Positions 2,720 to 15,880 of a DNA stretch of 29,311 bases are shown here, piece after piece. Source of the DNA: a virus; IMG/VR virus record IMGVR_UViG_3300032082_001293, one strand, 5' to 3'. The translations under genes and the position numbers were made by a program. The notes beneath the pieces were generated by a model. That model was not told the DNA's origin and made no database searches. It saw only the letters and a program-made list of their open reading frames with translations. The number at the start of each line of letters is the position of its first letter. Position 1 is the stretch's first letter.

Positions 2720-3343
2720 CTATTTGAGTGCCAAAAATTCACCTTTCTTCAAGGTGTTATCAACTTTAGTATCTACTACTGTTAAATCACTATCTATGTC
2801 TTTCACTAACTGTCCATATGTACTTGCACCAGTGTTCGGTGTAGTCGATCTAGCCCAAACATACGCAGCAATATTTTCATAATCCGCTTGAGTAATAGCT
2901 GCACTTGCAACTAACTGGTCTACCAAGTTAGAACGTGTCAAGTTAACTGATACACCTTCTGCAAACAAGAATGGGTTACCACCCGCTTCTCTTGTATAAA
3001 TGTTTCCGTTTACCGTAAGAATATACGGATTCTTACTCGCAAATGGTTGTATTCTCCATCCATTCTCTAGGAAGAATGTCGAACCAACGTTCAACGTATC
3101 GTTCAACGGTTCACCACCGATAGCACTAATTGCTTCTAGTTGCCAAGATGGTAATGGATATTCTGGTGAATTTAGTACCCATTCTTTCCATGCAGAATAT
3201 ATGTCAATCTTTACATCAAGTACTGTAACACCTTCGTTTACATATATGATTTTTGCAAAAGCATCAAACGCAACCTTTTGATTAGGAAACAGATTAGGAT
3301 CCCAATTCCAATTATTACCATATTGGTGATGAATAAATGCCAT
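2720..3343 (-). CDS. Hypothetical virion protein; N-domain paralogous to the 647-aa ORF
   Basis: 207 aa. KVAFDAFAKIIYV...DIYSAWKEW...FFLENGW aligns by eye with the N-terminus of 8729..10672. TAATG coupling with the upstream gene. Confidence 0.7.
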   Translation of the reverse strand: MAFIHHQYGNNWNWDPNLFPNQKVAFDAFAKIIYVNEGVTVLDVKIDIYSAWKEWVLNSPEYPLPSWQLEAISAIGGEPLNDTLNVGSTFFLENGWRIQPFASKNPYILTVNGNIYTREAGGNPFLFAEGVSVNLTRSNLVDQLVASAAITQADYENIAAYVWARSTTPNTGASTYGQLVKDIDSDLTVVDTKVDNTLKKGEFLALK

Positions 3344-5826
3344 TACTGACTAAGTTCTTTCCACACAACATTGAATGTGATATAAGTTCGATCAGGTGCA
3401 GATGGTTGTGATCCGCCTGGCTGGAACCCAAGATCGTCTCCACCGATTGGATTGTACATAAACGTCCAAACAGGAGCAGATGGTGGTTCTGCTTCGAGCG
3501 CACCTTCGTCTGCCAAATTGTATGCTGGATTACTCCAACCCGAAGAACTGTATGCATTCAAAGATGTCTTGTAATCTAACGGATATGCATTAACACCGTT
3601 CCTTCTAACAGAGCTCAACGTGGTACTCAACAATGTTGCTCCGGAACTATTCTTAACTGTGAATGCAGTACCACCCGCAAGATCTGAGTCCAACAAGGCA
3701 TTGTTTCTACCTTCAAGGAATATTTGACCCGCATCTGAATCATAGTCGAGAACCAGTGCACTTCCCGCACCAGCAACTTGTGCACTGTCTTGACCACTTG
3801 GCGAAAGATTGTTAATCCCCACTGGAATAGTAGAAGGCGTGAAATTAATAATTCGAGTATTACGGTCATCTTCGAGCAATGACACGCCACCCGCATCACT
3901 GTCGTACAACCAAGCATCGTTACTTGACAAGAAAGACAAATAGAAGTTTTTGTTCAGTAATGTTTCGGGGCCATTGGTATCTGTAATGTCCTTGAACGTA
4001 ATTAATTGTTTGTCTTCGAAGTAGTGAACATTCCCGCCTCGTTCTGGATCTTGACCAACCTGTATTTCAACACGTTGTACGCCACGACTATACCGATCTG
4101 TTTGACCAAAAATATCTTGCAGAGGTTGTTTGCGTCTTGAAAGTCCTACTTCTGTGTTAGGTCTTACTGCGCCCCATTGAATACCGTCAAACAATTTTTC
4201 TAAGTTGACATCAAGTACACCATTCCGAATTGGTGCTCGTATAATTTCTGGGCCGTGACCAATGTGATGCCCTTTGGCATTGTATACAGAACGAATACCA
4301 TCTACGCTGGTAACTGCATCACCATCTCTTTGTATCGTAGCGTAACTGGGTGTTTCCCATTTCTCTCCTCGAAGAATACACTTCAAGAACACACGCAACT
4401 CTCCATCTGGGAAAGTCCCGTCTTCGTTAAAACAATTGAGACGAATTTGTTCTGGTGCATACAGAGAGTGGTTATCTTGTCCGGCGGCAGGAAAACCAGC
4501 AGGGTATTCAGCAACGGGACGCATTGAGGTGAGGTAATAAACACCCTGCGTATATGGAACACCCGCAGTAGTTACTTTGTTATCAATCATGAATACTTCA
4601 TCAATAGACCCCGGCTTTCCCAATTCTTGAACGGGGTCAGTTCCCGCATCTGTCCAAACACCAGCACCTAACGCATAAAAATAATCAGCACTATCTTCTG
4701 TCGGCGCAGACGTTCTCTTAGTTGCCCAACAAATAGGTCTTGCATTCAACCCGATAGCATTTGTTTGCCATCCGATGTCGGTTCGATTACTCATATCCAT
4801 TTCATGACAGATGATTCGTTCACCGTTGATGATAATACCCCAACGAATAGAACCCCCGCCTAAACTTTGATAATCGTAGAAATACTGGTTTGCCGTTGTG
4901 ACATCAAGGGTTACGCCTGATCTGTTCCCGCCGCCACCACTACCGTCCAAACGATCACCATTCCAGTTTGACTGTGGTATGACTGTTTCGGTTTGAGTAC
5001 CGTCAAAAGTTCTACGATGTACGACAGAGAGACCTGACCCAGTGAGACGGAACATAAACCCGTCAGTTGCATCAAATGGACCCCAGTTTCTCACACAGGT
5101 TGCTTTACCAGTATCAGGAATCATGGTTCCCATAATAACGAAGATACCAGAACCAAACGTTAACGGGTGATAAAGGTGTGAGGTGTTTGTTGCAAGGTCA
5201 CCAGAAGCGCCATTGCCAAGATTACCTTCTAAACCAAGACGTATCCATTTCTTACCTGAGTCCCATACAGCAGTGCCAGAACCCAAGAGAGAGTTTGCAA
5301 ATTGTGAGGGCATTGCATCAACGTCGAAAACATAATTAGCAAGAACCCTTGAGTCAGCAATACGCAGCTGACCATATGCCGCAAGTTCTGGTTGTCCTTC
5401 TGAGAATCTAATGTTTGCCGCACCGAAACGGTCAATCTCTAATCCGTACTCTGGGTTGTCGTACCCCATAATGTGGGTAGTTGGTACGTATACGTCATAT
5501 GCTTCTTTTACTTTACAAATGTTTGTACCATCATAAGAAATGGTTTCACCAGCGGCAGGAACTGCATTTTCAAACTTTGCAGTTTTATTATAGTGAACCG
5601 CAAGAATACCAGTACCATCACCTTTATCATAAACGCCGTGTACGTGCACGTCACCACCTTGAAAATTGGTAATGTCGTATCTTTCGCCGATTTTCCAAAC
5701 GTGATCAGTATCTCCACCTTGTGCATCTAATTTCTGCTCGAATTCGATCTCAGCAGTGTGTATCATGTACAGACGATCGCCAGTGCTCTCTGGTGGTATT
5801 CTTGTATATCGTTTTTCACCTGCCAT
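3343..5826 (-). CDS. Large hypothetical virion protein with a predicted beta-rich central domain
   Basis: 827-aa ORF with its own late promoter and SD GGAG. AAYGQLRIA and PQSNWNGDRLDG...LDVTTANQYFYDYQSLGGGSIRWG resemble, from memory, a widespread uncharacterised phage structural-protein family. Confidence 0.7.
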   Translation of the reverse strand: MAGEKRYTRIPPESTGDRLYMIHTAEIEFEQKLDAQGGDTDHVWKIGERYDITNFQGGDVHVHGVYDKGDGTGILAVHYNKTAKFENAVPAAGETISYDGTNICKVKEAYDVYVPTTHIMGYDNPEYGLEIDRFGAANIRFSEGQPELAAYGQLRIADSRVLANYVFDVDAMPSQFANSLLGSGTAVWDSGKKWIRLGLEGNLGNGASGDLATNTSHLYHPLTFGSGIFVIMGTMIPDTGKATCVRNWGPFDATDGFMFRLTGSGLSVVHRRTFDGTQTETVIPQSNWNGDRLDGSGGGGNRSGVTLDVTTANQYFYDYQSLGGGSIRWGIIINGERIICHEMDMSNRTDIGWQTNAIGLNARPICWATKRTSAPTEDSADYFYALGAGVWTDAGTDPVQELGKPGSIDEVFMIDNKVTTAGVPYTQGVYYLTSMRPVAEYPAGFPAAGQDNHSLYAPEQIRLNCFNEDGTFPDGELRVFLKCILRGEKWETPSYATIQRDGDAVTSVDGIRSVYNAKGHHIGHGPEIIRAPIRNGVLDVNLEKLFDGIQWGAVRPNTEVGLSRRKQPLQDIFGQTDRYSRGVQRVEIQVGQDPERGGNVHYFEDKQLITFKDITDTNGPETLLNKNFYLSFLSSNDAWLYDSDAGGVSLLEDDRNTRIINFTPSTIPVGINNLSPSGQDSAQVAGAGSALVLDYDSDAGQIFLEGRNNALLDSDLAGGTAFTVKNSSGATLLSTTLSSVRRNGVNAYPLDYKTSLNAYSSSGWSNPAYNLADEGALEAEPPSAPVWTFMYNPIGGDDLGFQPGGSQPSAPDRTYITFNVVWKELSQ

Positions 5827-5862
5827 TTATTGCTCCAAAAAAATTCTTGCGTTAATACTCTT

Positions 5863-5870
5863 TATTTATA
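5863..5870 (-). promoter_or_regulatory. T4-type late promoter TATAAATA
   Basis: Plus strand tatttata, intergenic between the stop at 5878 and the start at 5826. Confidence 0.85.
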
Positions 5871-5877
5871 AGTTTTT

Positions 5878-7935
5878 TTATGCTGGGTCTCGATAGTTTC
5901 TGTCACCGACCTGCGTCAGTGGTATGTTACCTGTTTCAGCTGAATTGTTTAATGATAGAATAGGGTTTGACCCAGTTCTAAATGCCAAGATATCTATCAC
6001 GTTTCCTACCGGAGTTGAAAACTGAAACCTTGCGTCTACTTTCTCTACTGTGACTGTTTTAGAATTTGCACCAGTAATTGCGGTTCCAAACGCAGAAGTA
6101 AACCCAGAAGAAAGCGTTTTTGTTATTATCGAAGTTGTAGTCGGTGCTGTTGGGTCTGCATCAACCTCAAACTCATCAAACAATTGTAATGATGGGTTGG
6201 TATCATCATCTCGAACTACGATTCGTATCTTGTCACCATCGGCTAATGCTCTAGGATTAGTTGCGTTTGTGTCCTGTAACACGCCAGGGAAATTACTAAA
6301 CACAGCAGAACCTACTGCATCAATCGTAACGAATGTACCACCAGTATTGATTTGATAATAGTTTGTATTGTCTCCAACAAATGTGTCTGCACTTATTCTC
6401 TCAGTTGACGAAACAGTTGTCACACTCGGGGCGGGTAATGAAGTTGCAGAGTATGGGGATGGATTGTCTAGTACACTAATCTCTGTGTTACCTAACAAAC
6501 GAGTTAAAGAAACCGTAGCGGCTTCAACAATCGAAACTGTCCCTGCTCCAAGATTTTGAATTGATGGTACGGTAGAATTGTTAACTATGTTGATTGTTAA
6601 TGTTTGACTTGTTGCTACATTAACTTCTATTGCTGCACTATCTGTTCCAGTCGTACCAACAAAATCTCCAGTAGTCCCCGCAGTATAACCCGAAAGTGTG
6701 TTATTTGAAAAGTTAATTGATTTGGTTTGTGCAACCGACCCAAGACGTATTGCGTGATTAGATCTATTGGGAGTTGAGGTAAAACTACAACCAGTTATTA
6801 GACTTATATCATTTCCTGAATCACTTACGTGCAATGCGTGAGCTGAATCGTGTGTTGTTTCAAAATCACAATTGGTAAAGGTCGCACCATTTTGTCTAAC
6901 AACATCAGCTCTTCGAAAGGTTACATCCTGATTCGTAGAATTAGAACCAAAGTTAAAGAAACCCATATCGGTAAATGAACAACCTTTAAAGTTCGTAGCT
7001 GCGTTATCGTTAACAATTAGATTTCCTCTCGCAGAATCAATTGTAGTACCATACGCACTTCCTTTGGAGAATACGATGTTTCCCCATATAATATTCGAAT
7101 TTGCGTTACTAATTTCAATCAGATTAAATTCAGGATAACAATATCGAGTATCATCAATCAAGATACTCTGATTCGAATCTTCAAATAGAAGCGATGTCGC
7201 GGATGTGCCTAGTTCTAGTCTTCCTTTATAAAGGTATCCTGCCGCAGTTTCTTGAAATATTCCCCAACGGTTAGCTTCCAAGTCGTTTTGTGTAGCCATA
7301 TCATCGAAGGTACCAGCGGGTGCTCCACCAGTAAATGTTATAGACGCTCTTCCCCAACGAACCGCATCTACTGCGTGACCCTGACCACGGTTCAAACCAA
7401 TTCTAGGATTAGGTGTTGCGGTCAGTGCGGTATATGTTCCAGCGGTAGGCGTACCTTCTTGAATTGCCGCTTTAGTCGAAGCCGTTGAGGGGTCAATTGC
7501 GATATTAGTCCAACCACCATATGGATACGTACCGTAATCTCTTCCACCTACTGCCCAATGATAAGAATTACCATCACCAGAACCTATACCTAAAAAATAT
7601 CCAGCCTCAGTGCCAGGCGCGTTCAGGCTTGGAAACGCTTGACCAAGACCTTGGGTTTCATTAAATGGGTTAAGTGCATTGGGAAAAAGAAAGTACCACC
7701 AAAGGAGAAAAACGTCTGTCCCATCTGTGAAACCAGCGGGGTCAGTAACCGCTTGATACATTGCTCCACACGCACCAGATTTGTTCGCCCGAAGCGCTTG
7801 GGAACTACAATCGTTTCCTTGCAGGTATGCTTCTGCATCAACAATTGGCGTCGAACCACCAGTGTCTCGGGCTGGTTCGCCCCAAGCACCATCGGTGTAG
7901 ATATCGTTTAAGTCTGTGGTGGGTGTGTTAGCCAT
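5878..7935 (-). CDS. Hypothetical virion protein with a beta-helix-like middle region and C-terminal RNYRDPA tail
   Basis: 685 aa, T/G/N/S-rich; repeats such as FKGCSFT, FTNCDFE, ITGCSFT and FSNNTLS suggest a right-handed beta-helix; ends DRNYRDPA*. Confidence 0.7.
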   Translation of the reverse strand: MANTPTTDLNDIYTDGAWGEPARDTGGSTPIVDAEAYLQGNDCSSQALRANKSGACGAMYQAVTDPAGFTDGTDVFLLWWYFLFPNALNPFNETQGLGQAFPSLNAPGTEAGYFLGIGSGDGNSYHWAVGGRDYGTYPYGGWTNIAIDPSTASTKAAIQEGTPTAGTYTALTATPNPRIGLNRGQGHAVDAVRWGRASITFTGGAPAGTFDDMATQNDLEANRWGIFQETAAGYLYKGRLELGTSATSLLFEDSNQSILIDDTRYCYPEFNLIEISNANSNIIWGNIVFSKGSAYGTTIDSARGNLIVNDNAATNFKGCSFTDMGFFNFGSNSTNQDVTFRRADVVRQNGATFTNCDFETTHDSAHALHVSDSGNDISLITGCSFTSTPNRSNHAIRLGSVAQTKSINFSNNTLSGYTAGTTGDFVGTTGTDSAAIEVNVATSQTLTINIVNNSTVPSIQNLGAGTVSIVEAATVSLTRLLGNTEISVLDNPSPYSATSLPAPSVTTVSSTERISADTFVGDNTNYYQINTGGTFVTIDAVGSAVFSNFPGVLQDTNATNPRALADGDKIRIVVRDDDTNPSLQLFDEFEVDADPTAPTTTSIITKTLSSGFTSAFGTAITGANSKTVTVEKVDARFQFSTPVGNVIDILAFRTGSNPILSLNNSAETGNIPLTQVGDRNYRDPA

Positions 7936-8398
7936 TGTTCATCTTTACCAATTTTAGAAATTTTTTGAGAAGATCAAATTTTTCCACACCATCACGGGGA
8001 TATAACATAGGTTGTAATGTGTCGTGTTTTCTTAAAACTACACTGTATCCTTGTTGATTAAAAACTTTTATTTGATTCATACCGTGTTCACTTATTGTGA
8101 CTTCTGCTCTCACTGTTCCTATGAACATTTCTTCATCAATTTTTTCAAAAATAATTCCACACTTATCTGGTCGCATAAACAAAGGCGCCTTTTCGTGTTG
8201 TGCATAAGAACAGAAAAAATCTCTACATATTTTCGGACGTTCTTCGTGCACTTTACAACCCACATTTTTCTCGCAATAACCGCACATTTCTCCTGCTGGA
8301 GAATCTATGACAATTGTTTCAATAATATTACCTTGTGTTGCTTTTAATGATTTTACTTCAAGTAATTCGCAACATTCGGTGCATTCACCGCATTCCAT
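7928..8398 (-). CDS. YkgJ/FliB-type CxxCxxCC cysteine-cluster (Fe-S/Zn) protein
   Basis: Begins MECGECTECC and contains CGYCEKNVGCKVHEERPKICRDFFC, the typical two-part motif of the PF03692 family. Confidence 0.85.
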   Translation of the reverse strand: MECGECTECCELLEVKSLKATQGNIIETIVIDSPAGEMCGYCEKNVGCKVHEERPKICRDFFCSYAQHEKAPLFMRPDKCGIIFEKIDEEMFIGTVRAEVTISEHGMNQIKVFNQQGYSVVLRKHDTLQPMLYPRDGVEKFDLLKKFLKLVKMNNG

Positions 8399-8405
8399 AA
8401 TATGC

Positions 8406-8672
8406 TCAATCGTTTAAATGACTTTCAATTTCCCCTACAAGACCCTCGTCCATTTCTTTTTTAAATGATAACACATCATCCAAATTGAACCACCATGTTG
8501 GTTCAGTTGTTTCAACATTTTCATTAAATGAAATTGTACCATCTTCATTGTAGTTTAATTCTTCATCACCAACAAGTTGAATCGGAAGCCGTTTCTCATT
8601 GTTCGCAATATAAAGAACCTCATCGGCACTTCGATTAAGTATTTCACTGGCTTGTTCTAAAGATATTTTCAT
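8406..8672 (-). CDS. Excisionase/MerR-like helix-turn-helix protein (HTH_17-like)
   Basis: ATG at 8672 with SD GAGGA is preferred over TTG at 8684. ISLEQASEILNRSADEVLYIANNEKRLP...WWFNLDDVLSFK fits the winged HTH_17 pattern, with an acidic insertion in the wing. Confidence 0.6.
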   Translation of the reverse strand: MKISLEQASEILNRSADEVLYIANNEKRLPIQLVGDEELNYNEDGTISFNENVETTEPTWWFNLDDVLSFKKEMDEGLVGEIESHLND

Positions 8673-8682
8673 AATATTCCTC

Positions 8683-8715
8683 AAAAAAAAAATTAAGGGG
8701 CCCCGAAGGACCCCT
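8683..8715 (-). terminator. Rho-independent terminator with cUUCGg tetraloop
   Basis: Minus strand AGGGGTCC-TTCG-GGGCCCCT followed by TAA and T10, 13 nt after the stop of the 647-aa gene. Confidence 0.92.
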
Positions 8716-8728
8716 CGTGTTCATTTTA

Positions 8729-10672
8729 TTATGCTGGGTCAGAGTAGTTACGTTCTACAGCAGATACTACAGAGATACTATTTGTATTCTGTTCTGTAAT
8801 CGTTGCAGTCTGTTCCACCCAAGTACCATTGTTCAATCCAATTGCACGAACGTTAACATCGAAAGGTTGTCCACCTTCTCTGTCTTTTTGTGAATTGTTA
8901 TCAAACGCATAAGATACCACAAAACGGTTGTTTGTTAAACTACCAGATGCAAGGTCCGAAACGGCCGCCTGTGCAACATTATTTTCTGCTGTTGCACCAG
9001 CAGAGTCAAGTAACAATGCGCCCGGAGAGTTGATTGGGTGAGTGTAAATTGCATCGCCCGCTGTATTCAAAGTCTCATTAATTGGTGCAACCGTATCATC
9101 AAGTGTAATCGCCGCAAAGTTACTGGAATCGACTACAGAAGTTACTTTCCAAATAACGTTGTGATTAGCACCAGTACCACTAGCTTTATTTAAGCGGAAA
9201 TATGCATTAGCATCAGTTAAGGGGTCTAGACCCTCTGGGTTCTGAACAGTAGTGGTTGTCAATAAAGGTGTGAACGATACCGCACCATTTAAAGTAATGT
9301 TAGCACTGTCAAGATACGCATTAGTTGCTGACGGACCTACGTCAGCAAGTTGAATCGACGTTCCGATTTCACCACCAACAGCGTAATCACGTGTGTGGTC
9401 ATAGTATACAAACACTTTAGCGTTAGCACCATCATCCAAAATATCTTGAGAGAAACCAATACTAATTGCAGTAGAGAACGGGAATGATTGCAACGACCCA
9501 CCAGTATTGAACAACTGGGTGTTGTTGATATCATCAGCATTAACATTAGTAATCGCAACACCAGTTCTGGTACCGTTTTGGTCGATATTAGTTACTGGTT
9601 TAGTTGTTAATGTATCACCAACAAAGGCCAACAATTCATCTGCCAGTTTACCACTCTTAACTGTACCTGCAGCAAATTCAATATCAGAATCTTGACGCAA
9701 GTTATATTGAACCCAAGCATATAATTCTTGGTTAGTTAAAGGTGTTGTTCCATCAACGCCTGATGCAGATTTAATCTTAACACCAAAATTGAAAGGACCA
9801 CCCAACAAGTCTTCTGAATAACCGAAAGTGTTAGATGCTTCATCTACCGCAAGATATTCAATGGTAGAACCGTCACCTGTAGTCGAGTACTTTTGACCAT
9901 TTCCTTTTGCAGCTAAAATAGTTGCGTCACTTACACCACCAGCACCAGTAATTTTAAGGTCGTTACCTTCAACCAACGGGAATCGTTGAGTGTTATAAGG
10001 AAGAGTTGTACCAGCTGACAAACCGATATCTACGGTGTCAGTTTGGTCGTATGTCTTACCTTCTTGACGAATGAACAAACGAAGAATATCTCCACGAAAA
10101 TCAAGTTCTGCCGTTTGGTTTGCATCACTGTCTTTATAAGTCAGTACTGCTTGGTTAACTTCGCCGGGGAAGTTGTAGTCAAATGGACCAGCCTTTGATG
10201 TACCATTTGCAGAATCAAAAAATGCGTAATAAACGAAATCTTGGTCACCAGCACCGTCTTGGTTCTGATCACCATCGATATTACCTAGAGAAATTGTACC
10301 AATATACTGACGTTTCAATGTGGTATCATCAGTACTAAATTCTCTCCATCCAGCAGTACGAATCAAAGAACGCGATGAATCGTCAGCAGGTGACCATCCG
10401 AAACGCCATTCGAACTGTTCTGGTGTAATAGCGACGAGTGGGAAAGGATAAGCAATCAACTGTTTACTGTTTGGGTCATCCTTCCATTCTTGTTTAAGAA
10501 AGCTGTAAAGTGCCTGAAGCGTCACCCCCGTTTCATCAAGAACGGGTCCCTTTGGCGCTGCACTGTTGTTACGAATCTTAATTGTTCGTAATGCAGTGTC
10601 GATGTGAATGTTCTTACCGGCGGAATCTCCACCAGTATCAAACAACCCATCTGGATCTACAATTGTTGGCAT
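8729..10672 (-). CDS. Hypothetical, probably high-copy virion protein (candidate filament major subunit)
   Basis: 647 aa with its own late promoter, SD AGGAG and terminator; N-domain shared with the 207-aa ORF; C-terminal ERNYSDPA* shared with the 685-aa ORF. Confidence 0.72.
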   Translation of the reverse strand: MPTIVDPDGLFDTGGDSAGKNIHIDTALRTIKIRNNSAAPKGPVLDETGVTLQALYSFLKQEWKDDPNSKQLIAYPFPLVAITPEQFEWRFGWSPADDSSRSLIRTAGWREFSTDDTTLKRQYIGTISLGNIDGDQNQDGAGDQDFVYYAFFDSANGTSKAGPFDYNFPGEVNQAVLTYKDSDANQTAELDFRGDILRLFIRQEGKTYDQTDTVDIGLSAGTTLPYNTQRFPLVEGNDLKITGAGGVSDATILAAKGNGQKYSTTGDGSTIEYLAVDEASNTFGYSEDLLGGPFNFGVKIKSASGVDGTTPLTNQELYAWVQYNLRQDSDIEFAAGTVKSGKLADELLAFVGDTLTTKPVTNIDQNGTRTGVAITNVNADDINNTQLFNTGGSLQSFPFSTAISIGFSQDILDDGANAKVFVYYDHTRDYAVGGEIGTSIQLADVGPSATNAYLDSANITLNGAVSFTPLLTTTTVQNPEGLDPLTDANAYFRLNKASGTGANHNVIWKVTSVVDSSNFAAITLDDTVAPINETLNTAGDAIYTHPINSPGALLLDSAGATAENNVAQAAVSDLASGSLTNNRFVVSYAFDNNSQKDREGGQPFDVNVRAIGLNNGTWVEQTATITEQNTNSISVVSAVERNYSDPA

Positions 10673-10733: not shown

Positions 10734-10741
10734 TATTTATA
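10734..10741 (-). promoter_or_regulatory. T4-type late promoter TATAAATA
   Basis: Plus strand tatttata immediately after the collagen gene stop (10743). Confidence 0.85.
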
Positions 10742-10742
10742 A

Positions 10743-11828
10743 TTATGAATATGTAAACGTGATTCTATCATCCCATATTTTATCAAATTCAGCAGTTCCA
10801 TCTGCCCATAAAATATTGTAGTCATTACCAATTTCTTCGATACGTTTGATTCGCCATTTAGGTTGATCCGTATTAGTACCAGGCAATGCCTCACCTATGT
10901 AATAAAACGTCCCTTCCTGATCTATTAATTTGTTATACTGCACTTCTAATTCCGCTTTTAATCTGTCCAATACATTTACGAAAGAATCCGCAATAAATTT
11001 TTTCTTGGTGGGGTCGTAGATTAATATCGCATCATCTACTACGCCCTTCAATGCAGCTTTATCAACATCTGCATTATCAACCAATTTGTAAGAACCACCA
11101 CCTCCGATAGTGCTTAGAGATTGATTGATTCTATCAATCTGTTTCTGAATATTGTTATCAACTCTTGATGCATTTTCTGTCAGTCGTTGATTAAAATTCT
11201 TTAATGCTTCTTCGAACTCATTTCTGTAATCAGGTGCAGGAGTTCCGGGCTCACCTTTCTCTCCACGTTCACCTTTTTCACCTTGAGGGCCAGTTAATCC
11301 TCTCTCGCCTCGTTCGCCTCGTTCACCCTTTGCTCCTGCAACTCCTTGAGGGCCAGCAGGTCCGATTGCTCCGACAGGACCGGCGGGACCGATTGGGCCA
11401 GGTTCTCCTTTCTCACCACGAGCTCCAGTATCGCCTGTATCACCCTTCTCACCACGTTCTCCTTGGGGGCCAGTTAATCCCTGTAGGCCAGTGTCACCCT
11501 TTTCTCCTTGGAAACCTCTCTCGCCTTGTAATCCTTGTTCGCCTCTCTCGCCCTTTTCTCCACGAAGTCCAGTATCTCCCTTGTCTCCCCTGAGACCTTG
11601 AGCTCCTCGATCTCCTTTTTCGCCACGGTCACCTTTGATACCTTGGTCACCTTTATCTCCCTTAACTCCTTTATCGCCTTTTGGGCCCTGTGGACCTTCA
11701 AACCCTTGCGGTCCTTGAAGTCCTTGAAGGTCTTCGAAAACATTAAATATTTTGTCTTCTAACTTTTCAATTTCTTTCTGCGTGTGTACTATGGAGAACG
11801 CAGTAGAAATTTTATCAATCTTGTTCAT
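10743..11828 (-). CDS. Collagen triple-helix repeat fibre protein
   Basis: 361 aa; 54 uninterrupted Gly-X-Y triplets flanked by predicted coiled coils; small C-terminal domain (YYIGEALPG...KWRIKRI...FDKIWDDR); overlaps the gp20 stop by 14 nt. Confidence 0.9.
11238..11723 (-). repeat. (Gly-X-Y)54 collagen-coding repeat
   Basis: Residues 36-197 of the 361-aa ORF (GLQ...GTP), manual count. Confidence 0.9.
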
Positions 11829-13485
11829 TGATTCGTGCCATATACCTTGTCATTTCTTCAAGTAATTCATCTTCTTGTGAAGGTATATATTTTTCTTTTT
11901 TCTCCTCAGATTCTTGAGGGGGTTCTTCATCAGAACTAGGTTCTGCCTTGGGTTCAGGCTTTGGTTTTTCTTCATCGTCACCACCACCCATTCCAGGCAA
12001 CTCAACATCACCGTCTTCACCTTCACTATCTATTTGTTTCTGCATGTCCTCAATATCTTCTTCAGACATTCTCAAAACATTTTTCCATATCCACTCTTTA
12101 CTTACATAGTTACCCACGAATTGGTCTACTTCATTCAGAAGACCAAACCGTTCACGCATAATTTCTGTTTCTTTGAGCTCAGTGAAGTGATTGTCTTTAA
12201 CGTAATCAACGATGATTTCGTTTCGCCATTCTTCCCAATCCTGTTCTGTGATAATACCTTTTAACAGAAGTTGTTTACGAAGAATGCCTAAGAATACCTG
12301 AGAAAACTTTCTACGAAGACGGTCAACAAACTTTTGTAGTTTCACTTCGTCTCGTGAAATCTCAGTAGAACGACCAAGAGAGAACTGAGCTTCCTGTTCC
12401 AAACGATTGACAGGAACATTCAATGCACGATATAATCTCTTTTGGAAATAAATGATATCATCAATCTGACCAAGGTTGTCACCGCCAGGCAGAGTAGAAA
12501 TCTCTGTACCACGACCACCTTCTCGACGGGGTAACCAGAAGTCTTCAAGCATCGACATATGCTTGCGGTCATCTTTGAGTTCACCAGTGTTCGCATCGTA
12601 TACCAGTTTGTTACGATACTTTGCCATAATATCTTTCATATACTGTTCAGACTTACCACGGGGCAAGTTACCCACGTCAATATAAAAGATACGTCTTTCT
12701 GGTGCACGTGCGAGACGATAGATGACTAGAGAGTCTTCCATCATTCTTAACTGATTGATTGGTTTTAGTGCCTTGTGTAGATGCGACACAACTTTCTTTT
12801 TTGTCTCATCAAGTAAACCAGATGTGACATAACTAATAGAATCTGTAGAAAGTTTAACCGCTGATGATTGTTGTCCAGGCTTCTCTTCGTAAATATAAAA
12901 CTCGTCTACTGACTCAACAATCTTTGCGCCCGTTGCAGGGTCTTTTTTGTATTTTACATTTTTAACTTTACGAATCTTTGCAGCATCGATGTGTCTAATT
13001 TCTTGAATACCTGCTTTGAGATTCGATTCGTTCACAAGTAGGTGATGATAGATTCTACCATCAACATACCACGAACGGAAAATATCGTGTCCATTGTCAT
13101 TGAACTTCAACATAGACACAATATTTTTGAATTCTTCTTGAATTTGTTCTTTAATCTTATCGGGGGCTTCTACATCTTCTAGTGATAGTTCAAGGTTAGA
13201 TGTTAGTTCAGAAGCAGTAATCGATTCGTTGACAATTTCTTCAATCGCCATATCTACTTCTGGATGTGTTGCAACTCCACGATAACGTAAGATAAGTTGG
13301 TGATTGTCTTTAGAATTATCACCATCCATATTGATATACTGACCATAGTGACCAGCAGCTGTAGTGACATACCCAGCACCATCGTCATCCGTAGGCGGAA
13401 CAATGGAAGGAAGTTTTTCTTTCTTCTGTGCTTGTGTTCTGCGTAACTCAAAACCAAATAATTTAAAGATGCTATCGTCTGCCAT
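11815..13485 (-). CDS. gp20: Portal vertex protein
   Basis: [54 protein letters not shown] and [22 protein letters not shown] motifs. ATG at 13485 preferred over TTG at 13497. Confidence 0.98.
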
Positions 13486-13495
13486 ATCTGTGTCC

Positions 13496-13530
13496 AAAAA
13501 ATAAAATAAAGGGACCTCCGGAGAGGTCCC
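13496..13530 (-). terminator. Rho-independent terminator after gp19 (cUCCGg tetraloop)
   Basis: Minus strand GGGACCTC-TCCG-GAGGTCCC followed by TTTATTTTATTTTT. Confidence 0.9.
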
Positions 13531-14098: not shown

Positions 14099-15880
14099 TT
14101 AAACCGTACCAACCACTTCACTGAAATCAACTCCGGTGCGTACAGCAACAAAGTTAAGAGTGATGTAGTTAATAGAACGAGCAGGTTTGACAAAAACTGA
14201 ACAAACAAACTCGTTACGGTCGATTACTGCAGCCGTATTGTTTGTTTCGTCACAAACCACTCGGAAATCTGTAATACCTCTTCGACCCTGAATTTCTCTC
14301 AGGAACGGTTCAACGATATTAACAAATTCTGCACGAGTGAATTCGTCATTGAATTCAAACATTACGTTTCTTGCAGCTCGTTCGATTGACCTTTCAATTG
14401 CGAGGAACAATCGTCGGACATTAATACGATCGAAAGCTGATGGACGAGATTCTTTAGTCTTATCACCAAAAAGAATAATACCTTGTCCAGGCAAGTTTAC
14501 AATCGGATTAATTCCAGCTTTGTACAATGTATCTCTTTGTGCCTTACTAGCTGAATAAGCTAAGGAAGTAACTCCGAAATATTGACCCCTTCTTTGACCA
14601 GCAGGTGAGAACCAAGGTGCAGCGACAGCATCAGTCGATGCCATCAAACCAGCAGTGCCAGGAGCAGCTGGGATAAACACATATTGGTCGTTATACTTGT
14701 CATATACCTTAAGGTAGTTGTTGTCTACAATCAGGTAAGATGAAGCTGTGAAATTTGCAACACCACCAGTTGTGTTTGTTACCGCGTCAGCAGCAGTTAA
14801 ACCAACAACATCTTCTCTAGCAGGTGAAGTAACAACAACACAGTCTTTACGCAAAGATGCGGCCGTACCTACAATGTCATTAACAACGGTAGTTTGGTCA
14901 GCAGTAGCGGACATACCACGAGCGATTAAGAAATCCACCTGAATGTTTTCTTTACTTTCGAACTCGTCAAATCCTTTCGCAACATCACCAGTATCAATTG
15001 TTGGACCATTAGAACCACCGCCCAACTTAAACGTATGAATAGTTGGTGTAGCTGGTTCAAAGTCTGTTCCTGATGCGGTTGATGTGAAGTTATAATCTTC
15101 ATCTGCTGCACCGTCATGTTTGTTTAGGGATATTGCCCAAACATAACTTGAACGATTGTTAATAACATCAATAACGTGGTTATTAGAACCATCTACAGTC
15201 TTACCGTCCGTTGCAAAAGATAAGAACGGGAATGTTTCTAAAACAGCACCTACTGTACCAGTTAAAGTACCGTCTTCGTCTACTACGACAACGTGAACTT
15301 CATCGTCTGCACCATTAACGTCAGAGGCGTACTGTGAAGTACCTGGCGCTGCATCGAAATAACTGGCGTATGCCCAACCATCAAACAAAGTTGTATCGTT
15401 TGACTTAGCAGGACACAGTTCTACTCTGAGACTGTTACCAGCTTCGCCGGGATATTTTGCGATGAAAGTATGGTTTTTTGCTGGAGCTTTGAGACCAGCT
15501 ATTGTGTTCTGAATATCAAAATCGTCGGCATTCTTAACCAATGGTTTGCCAGATGACAAATCAATTATTTCATCTGAATCCCACGCATTTAACGCGCCGG
15601 TGTCAGCAGTATCATCTACTGTACGTGACACATAAAGACTTGTTGAGTATTGCAAAAAGTTTGCGGCAGACAAAAAGTCTACTGCATTTGTGGTACTTGG
15701 AGACCCGAATGTCGAAACCAACGTTCCCTCGTTATCTACGAGAGTTGGTTGGTGTACGGGACCCCAAGAAAATTCTCCTACATAAGCACCCGTTGAAGTA
15801 GTGACTGAAGGGACAACACCCGTTAAGTCAATTTCTTTAACTGTAATGCTGGGAGACGCTGATGGGGTAAAAAGAGCCAT
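14099..15880 (-). CDS. gp18: Tail sheath protein
   Basis: SPSITVKEIDLT, FSWGP, PWFSPAG, SAFDRINVRRLF, FEFNDEFTR and KPARSINYITLNFVAVRTG motifs. Confidence 0.98.
   Translation of the reverse strand: MALFTPSASPSITVKEIDLTGVVPSVTTSTGAYVGEFSWGPVHQPTLVDNEGTLVSTFGSPSTTNAVDFLSAANFLQYSTSLYVSRTVDDTADTGALNAWDSDEIIDLSSGKPLVKNADDFDIQNTIAGLKAPAKNHTFIAKYPGEAGNSLRVELCPAKSNDTTLFDGWAYASYFDAAPGTSQYASDVNGADDEVHVVVVDEDGTLTGTVGAVLETFPFLSFATDGKTVDGSNNHVIDVINNRSSYVWAISLNKHDGAADEDYNFTSTASGTDFEPATPTIHTFKLGGGSNGPTIDTGDVAKGFDEFESKENIQVDFLIARGMSATADQTTVVNDIVGTAASLRKDCVVVTSPAREDVVGLTAADAVTNTTGGVANFTASSYLIVDNNYLKVYDKYNDQYVFIPAAPGTAGLMASTDAVAAPWFSPAGQRRGQYFGVTSLAYSASKAQRDTLYKAGINPIVNLPGQGIILFGDKTKESRPSAFDRINVRRLFLAIERSIERAARNVMFEFNDEFTRAEFVNIVEPFLREIQGRRGITDFRVVCDETNNTAAVIDRNEFVCSVFVKPARSINYITLNFVAVRTGVDFSEVVGTV

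Follow-up and report, generated by a model that had tools for sequence, protein, structure and literature searches.

We propose that a gene cassette of the type that encodes the horn of cyanophage Syn5, located among the head genes of a marine T4-like phage, probably builds a polar filament on the virion. Its base would be a 207-aa protein (B), its repeating shaft a 647-aa protein (A) and its tip a 685-aa protein (T). The logic of base, repeating subunit and tip had been put forward in the original prediction, and it is well supported by the homology to the horn proteins gp53 and gp54, by coupling between the two ends of A, by the free tail of A and by a predicted B–A complex. The assembly model rests on two largely independent computational lines, co-evolution and complex prediction. 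The cassette itself is known but poorly understood; new here are the joint between subunits and the assembly model.

The cassette, its relatives and Syn5

The window comprises 29,311 nucleotides of virus DNA (IMGVR_UViG_3300032082_001293) on a 93.7-kb contig of a marine T4-like phage. It is the structural gene region of that phage, with genes for sheath, tube, terminase, neck, portal (PF07230), prohead protease, scaffold and gp23. The cassette is placed between the portal and the prohead genes (prohead protease). In order of transcription, it encodes a collagen-repeat protein (361 aa), A (647 aa), a 92-aa protein, a 156-aa CxxCxxCC protein, T (685 aa), an 827-aa protein and B (207 aa). Coordinates, lengths and tails of the reading frames for A, T and B, all three on the minus strand, are as originally described.

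11815–13497: portal (PF07230)
10743–11828, minus strand: collagen-repeat protein, 361 aa, PF01391, directly upstream of A
10734–10741, minus strand: T4-type late promoter TATAAATA, directly upstream of A
8729–10672, minus strand: A, 647 aa, Syn5 gp53 homologue (tblastn, AF2 model, fold search)
10319–10672, minus strand: N-terminal socket domain of A, residues 1–118, with cap helix 52–65 and loop 70–81 (HHalign, couplings)
8768–9484, minus strand: C-terminal prealbumin/CnaB-like Ig domain of A (397–424 and 552–635) with inserted beta-barrel (427–551) (VIA-align)
8729–8761, minus strand: putative tail latch of A, residues 638–647, E-R-N-Y class (conservation, couplings)
8695–8716, minus strand: intrinsic terminator directly 3' of A, ahead of T
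5878–7935, minus strand: T, 685 aa, gp54-type; N-terminal part variable, C-terminal part and tail conserved
5878–5904, minus strand: tail of T, D-R-N-Y class (co-varies with the tail of A within loci)
5863–5870, minus strand: late promoter upstream of the 827-aa gene and B
3343–5826, minus strand: 827-aa virion structural protein (PHROG 1645)
2720–3343, minus strand: B, 207 aa, Syn5 gp55 homologue; socket domain 22–138 and C-terminal helices (homology, model)

Homologues are found in T4-like, T7-like, other podo-, sipho- and large phages, and the profile of A is matched by 827 protein clusters at 50% identity. The three genes occur together in 43 of 45 non-redundant loci with enough flank, which come from unrelated phages (T in 44, B in 44). 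Gene order is ATB in 29 loci, TAB in 10 and ATTB in four; sizes range from 438 to 957 aa for A, from 403 to 1785 aa for T and from 133 to 2358 aa for B. Two T-type genes per cassette, one of about 400 aa and one longer, are present in L017, L039, L067, L118 and L171, and alternative tips are suggested by this arrangement. Locus L171 also has a B-like gene (9099–9818) upstream of A on the opposite strand, the sole such arrangement seen. Relatives of A in 14 prokaryotic genome bins (L118–L131), including Saccharibacteria and Kaiserbacteria, may reflect prophages, mis-binning or domestication.

Relatives of the 827-aa protein (PHROG 1645) are present in 15 of the 45 loci, three of them not T4-like. 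The stop codon of its gene overlaps the start of B in the window, and the protein has neither a Pfam nor a PDB match; it is possibly an accessory part of the system. The collagen-repeat protein, the C-terminal domain of which is encoded near A in 17 of the 45 loci, is a possible accessory fibre. Its gene lies immediately upstream of A in most T4-like loci. In three non-T4 loci, a 140-aa protein encoded near A consists of this C-terminal domain by itself, and genes similar to Syn5 gp52 take the place of the collagen-repeat gene in other loci. Genes for the 92-aa protein, which recurs in 11 loci, and for the 156-aa protein (PF03692, below the cut-off) lie between the terminator of A and T (7928–8684).

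A matches gene 53 of Syn5 by tblastn (E = 4e-36, 32% identity, 83% cover) and also genes of S-TIP28, Maribacter phage Panino, Rctr197k and a siphovirus. B is related to Syn5 gp55 (34% identity, pairwise E = 4e-9; HMM E = 9e-39). T has no direct sequence match to gp54. The link is made by intermediates, as gp54 matches T proteins in one single-linkage cluster with the T of the window; the D-R-x-Y tail of T and its place next to the gp53 homologue agree with it. Syn5, S-TIP28, Panino, Rctr197k and the siphovirus share one pattern, in which N-domain and tail are combined in one protein, the tail alone occurs in one or two, and the N-domain alone in one. The order A–T–B is that of Syn5, homology of A to gp53 and of B to gp55 is detectable, the tails of gp53 and gp54 belong to the two classes seen in A and T, and gp55 has only the socket. 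Unlike Syn5, which is T7-like, the phage analysed here is T4-like; A contains an inserted barrel, unlike gp53 (446 aa), the collagen-repeat and 827-aa genes are added, and gp58 is absent. By homology and gene order, the locus belongs to the Syn5 horn cassette, known here from its genes alone.

The horn of Syn5, which is composed of gp53 and gp54, is reportedly a structural oddity known since 2007. We found no published assembly mechanism for it in the literature covered, which leaves out the horn papers of 2007 and 2014, and our searches turned up neither a solved structure nor a family model for the horn proteins. That gp53 and gp54 are horn proteins is stated in the title of Raytcheva (2014), which PMC4102127 cites. 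Syn5 has a single horn, located at the vertex opposite the tail and added last (PMC4238041). The TEM description of Panino, a carrier of the cassette, mentions no horn.

Domains and tails of A, T and B

The AF2 model of A has a pLDDT of 91.4 and a pTM of 0.83, with the last seven residues at pLDDT of about 50. From the model, A appears to consist of four core domains (capped beta-helix-like, Ig, capped beta-helix-like, Ig), the inserted barrel and a tail, the first three folds being read from secondary structure. For the C-terminal Ig domain the fold search gave a VIA-align Z of 7.3 (rmsd 2.2, 87 aligned residues); the score against pilin CnaB (Z 5.7–6.4) is within the range of common Ig-like folds. 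The last strand (630–635) pairs inside its own domain, as seen in the AF2 model and from DCA (608–633, z 15.1). A second helix in A, residues 314–325, is similar to the socket helix and shows coupling to linker residue 240. When the profiles of domains 1 and 3 were compared, the cap helix alone aligned (E = 0.016), a hint from sequence comparison that A may be an ancient tandem of two socket–Ig units.

The beta-helix and adhesin calls made earlier for T stay tentative. Its beta-helix gave a weak match to a pentapeptide-repeat protein (E = 0.087) in addition to repeats seen by eye, and a LamG lectin domain is present in one relative of T (the second T gene, about 400 aa, of L039). Among close relatives of T the match is restricted to the C-terminal part, the N-terminal part being exchanged.

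The N-domain of B resembles a short capped beta-helix (weak matches), followed by helices. The C-terminus of B differs between phage groups; its last residues fall into classes, and some relatives have a long coiled coil. Fusions of the B socket domain to very long coiled coils are encoded at 10001–17077 of L116 (2358 aa) and at 15378–17729 of L039 (at least 784 aa), suggesting a stalked base. Two T4-like loci, L072 and L208, combine a short A of 438 aa with a B C-terminus of the T4 class. This combination gives a small hint that the end of B tracks capsid type and binds the capsid.

No family for A, T or B was found in Pfam and PHROGs. Sequence and fold searches of the PDB revealed no solved relative, which is no demonstration of a new fold. 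The best Foldseek hit had E = 0.012, and VIA-align reached at most Z 7.3 with A and Z 2.9 with B. The ESM Atlas search returned only viral clusters without names.

The N-domains of A and B had been proposed to be homologous. Pairwise BLASTP of the two domains gave no match. Profile comparison improved with deeper alignments, from E = 0.033 over 8e-5 to 8.8e-7 (HHalign probability 91.5%), the alignment falling on the motifs from which homology had been proposed, and this bears out the proposal. In both domain models the elements follow one another alike: two strands first, then a short strand and a long helix, and finally further strands.

A and T had been described as near-identical in their tails and otherwise dissimilar. 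The tails are indeed alike, and the shared motif is not a chance resemblance: the ending [DE]R.[YF] is confined, among 126 ORFs of the contig, to A and T, both on the minus strand, and to a single unrelated ORF, and the tails are conserved across hundreds of relatives. They nevertheless form two distinct classes, E-R-N-Y (A-type) and D-R-(N/Q)-Y (T-type), which differ almost absolutely in E versus D; T-type tails also carry a Q four residues before the R. The difference between E and D could point to different sockets. E640 and R641 of A are invariant in 148 sequences. The claimed dissimilarity has to be amended, as A and T also share the strand pattern of their last domain, which is weakly detectable (probability 93.5% with the tail, only E = 0.01 without it).

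At the DNA level, 12 bases at the 3' ends of the A and T genes (8729–8740 and 5878–5889) are identical, as had been noticed. The identity carries no independent weight: among 80 loci it is common only to the window and to L001, which is 90% identical, and it is incidental as a by-product of the shared D-P-A-stop. Gene conversion between the two tails at the DNA level was rejected, the identity being restricted to these two close loci.

The proposed joint between subunits

Co-evolution within A was analysed by DCA on 357 full-length sequences (Neff 231). Apart from ordinary local contacts, which were also recovered, the pairs 61–645 (z 9.1), 5–646 (z 7.1), 73–423 (z 5.7) and 74–423 (z 5.4) took four of the first five ranks among those linking the first domain to the last. 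The pair 61–645 ranked first in four random halves of the data. The close clade yields 61–645, and distant sequences alone yield 5–646 and 73–423. On the tree, residues 61 and 645 changed on the same branch in 13 of 45 cases (0.29), equal to the maximum among 139 comparable columns, whose median is 0.11. These changes include reciprocal swaps from E/N to Q/D and one reversion.

Near-invariant K60, next to residue 61, prompted us to consider a covalent Lys–Asn isopeptide joint. This is not favoured, because the Asn after R varies in T tails (N in 75%) and because the 61/645 swap resembles an amide–acid hydrogen bond.

Co-evolution cannot separate contacts within a chain from those between chains. 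The coupled contacts might thus close A into a hairpin monomer or a small ring (collar), with B and T as side partners. We consider this quite unlikely. AF2 had the signal in its alignment, yet the tail remained at pLDDT of about 50; in a ring no end would be left open, yet 43 of the 45 loci retain one partner with only a socket and one with only a plug; and B is predicted on the very face that the N-domain of A co-evolves with. A tail folding back within its own chain had been named as the outcome that would count against docking; the AF2 monomer model of A leaves it free. For this reason, the couplings between N-domain and C-terminal end of A are most simply placed between chains.

Complex prediction was carried out with residues 397–647 of A and 15–150 of B, so that the N-domain of A was not in the input. 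The complex reached an ipSAE of 0.79, the best of three controls 0.00; the mark for this score is reached by 58 of 80 solved and two of 110 mismatched pairs, counts that hold only roughly with our own alignments. Runs shared at least 72% of contacts, with partner pLDDT of at least 78. The model supports binding of B to the end face of the last Ig domain of A. In line with the original prediction of an A–B complex, the C-terminal domain of A is predicted to be bound through the surface that the N-domain of A and B have in common. On the B side the modelled interface consists of the conserved cap helix (S50, K53, E54, 56, 57) and loop 62–74, and on the A side of residues 417–423, 547–554 and 609–620, including invariant G612, at that end of the Ig domain where the tail leaves it.

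The two lines of evidence converge. By profile alignment, B66 and B67 correspond to A73 and A74. The modelled pairs 423–66 and 423–67 therefore map to 73–423 and 74–423 of A, which rank second and third of 11,322 in the DCA. Couplings are over-represented in the interface when it is mapped in this way (p about 4e-4). Part of the modelled pairs are uncoupled, several of them because the residues involved are near-invariant. The simplest reading is that the N-domains of A and B bind the same end face of A.

The tail had originally been thought to dock into the N-domain. DCA and the tree test do couple the tail of A to the N-domain, whereas the confidently predicted interface is the Ig end face; the tail lies outside the confident contacts of the B–A model, which is no evidence against its touching. 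From co-evolution, the tail of A may close like a latch on helix residue 61 and on the N-terminal segment, which is partly absent in B. The plug would thus be an Ig end face with a short tail latch, of which the tail geometry is deduced from the couplings, and not a donated strand.

Within loci, the tails of A and T vary together (at the key position 0.84 versus 0.68, uncorrected for kinship), and in three loci with K at A61 both tails are without the N-P ending. This suggests, from sequence covariation, that both tails meet the socket of A. A has its own T4-type late promoter and a strong terminator; a late promoter precedes A in most T4-like relatives, where hairpins are also found at the position of the terminator. 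Such a transcription unit fits a high-copy subunit, with T expressed by read-through, and A is probably made in excess.

With two sockets and two distinct tail classes, and with B–A as the only modelled step, the proteins could also form a discrete chain without polymer, T binding the socket of A and A that of B once each, or a trimer of such chains. We regard this as very unlikely. Such a chain predicts no coupling between the socket and the C-terminal end of A, yet these give the top pairs between the domains. Moreover, A61 tracks A645 more tightly than it tracks the tail of T (E61 occurs with N in 59 of 59 A tails versus 53 of 61 T tails), and A alone has its own transcription unit.

Proposed assembly on the virion and comparison with pili

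We envisage a polymer of A that grows from B and is ended by T. B would be fixed to the particle by its C-terminal helices, with its N-domain pointing outward and, as predicted, gripping the end face of the last Ig domain of A. The homologous N-domain of this A would point outward in turn and grip the next A likewise, the E-R-N-Y tail presumably folding over cap helix and N-terminus as a latch. Growth would end when T, which has a binding end and no socket, occupies the last socket and displays its variable, probably carbohydrate-binding N-terminal part. The role may be reversible attachment to glycans of the cell surface or of particles before tail engagement, which is the least certain step.

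Where the filament stands depends on B. Gipson (2014; PMC4102127) placed gp55 on capsid hexamers in two copies each, at knobs I/J, a copy number that speaks against gp55 as the base of a single horn, and B might accordingly be a many-copy capsid decoration that is either no horn base or seeds many short head fibres; the constant position of the cassette among head genes in T4-like loci would suit this. We judge it rather unlikely. The knob assignment in PMC4102127 is indirect, derived from secondary-structure prediction only, with no model built. The other proposed knob protein of Syn5 is gp58, a relative of which was found in no fetched locus outside Syn5 (L015, 12305–12814), including the S-TIP28 stretch, while relatives of gp55 travel with those of gp53 and gp54. 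In B, moreover, the socket helix is retained and binding to A is predicted, and Syn5 has a single horn that is added last. We suggest that gp55 is the anchor of the Syn5 horn, which questions the published assignment.

It is similarly improbable that the filament is real and stands on the neck, sheath or baseplate of this phage. The variation of the B C-terminus between phage groups, with a long coiled coil in some, is reminiscent of whisker-type fibres. Against this, the location in Syn5 is the head, and in the 15 T4-like loci the cassette is always among head genes, between portal and prohead protease wherever both are visible. Attachment of the filament to the head through B is the reading we retain.

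Chaperone-usher and type V pili are built from related domains as base, shaft and tip, the tip having a binding end and no socket, and the cassette follows the same logic. The analogy to pilus strand exchange drawn in the original prediction holds for this logic and fails for the donated strand: unlike in donor-strand-exchange pili, the last Ig domain of A is complete in cis, B binds loops of its end face, and the joint would be an Ig end face on a capped beta-helix-like domain with a short latch. By inspection, the N-termini of A, T and B have no signal peptide, hydrophobic signal or lipobox; no chaperone, usher or dedicated protease of such a system is encoded nearby, the neighbours being phage head and tail genes. 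Sortase pili share the base, shaft and tip logic; the C-terminal domain of A shows a modest resemblance to pilin CnaB, at scores that are common among Ig-like folds. Unlike in sortase pili, the C-termini, read directly, carry no LPXTG signal or membrane anchor, and the joint appears to be non-covalent.

We lean, by a narrow preference, towards a wider reading in which the cassette encodes a portable ‘phage pilus’ used by unrelated capsid types. It would be assembled in the cytoplasm and held together non-covalently by the joint of Ig end and beta-helix cap with its peptide latch, and would have exchangeable glycan-binding tips and a capsid-adapted base. The Syn5 horn would be one instance of it, with gp55 as anchor and not (only) a knob. 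If true, a self-assembling filament with a defined base and a swappable tip would be useful as a protein scaffold. The locus, together with its relatives, provides a residue-level, testable model of how the Syn5 horn builds up, and since the module is common, aquatic phages may widely possess an attachment organelle that has gone unrecognised.
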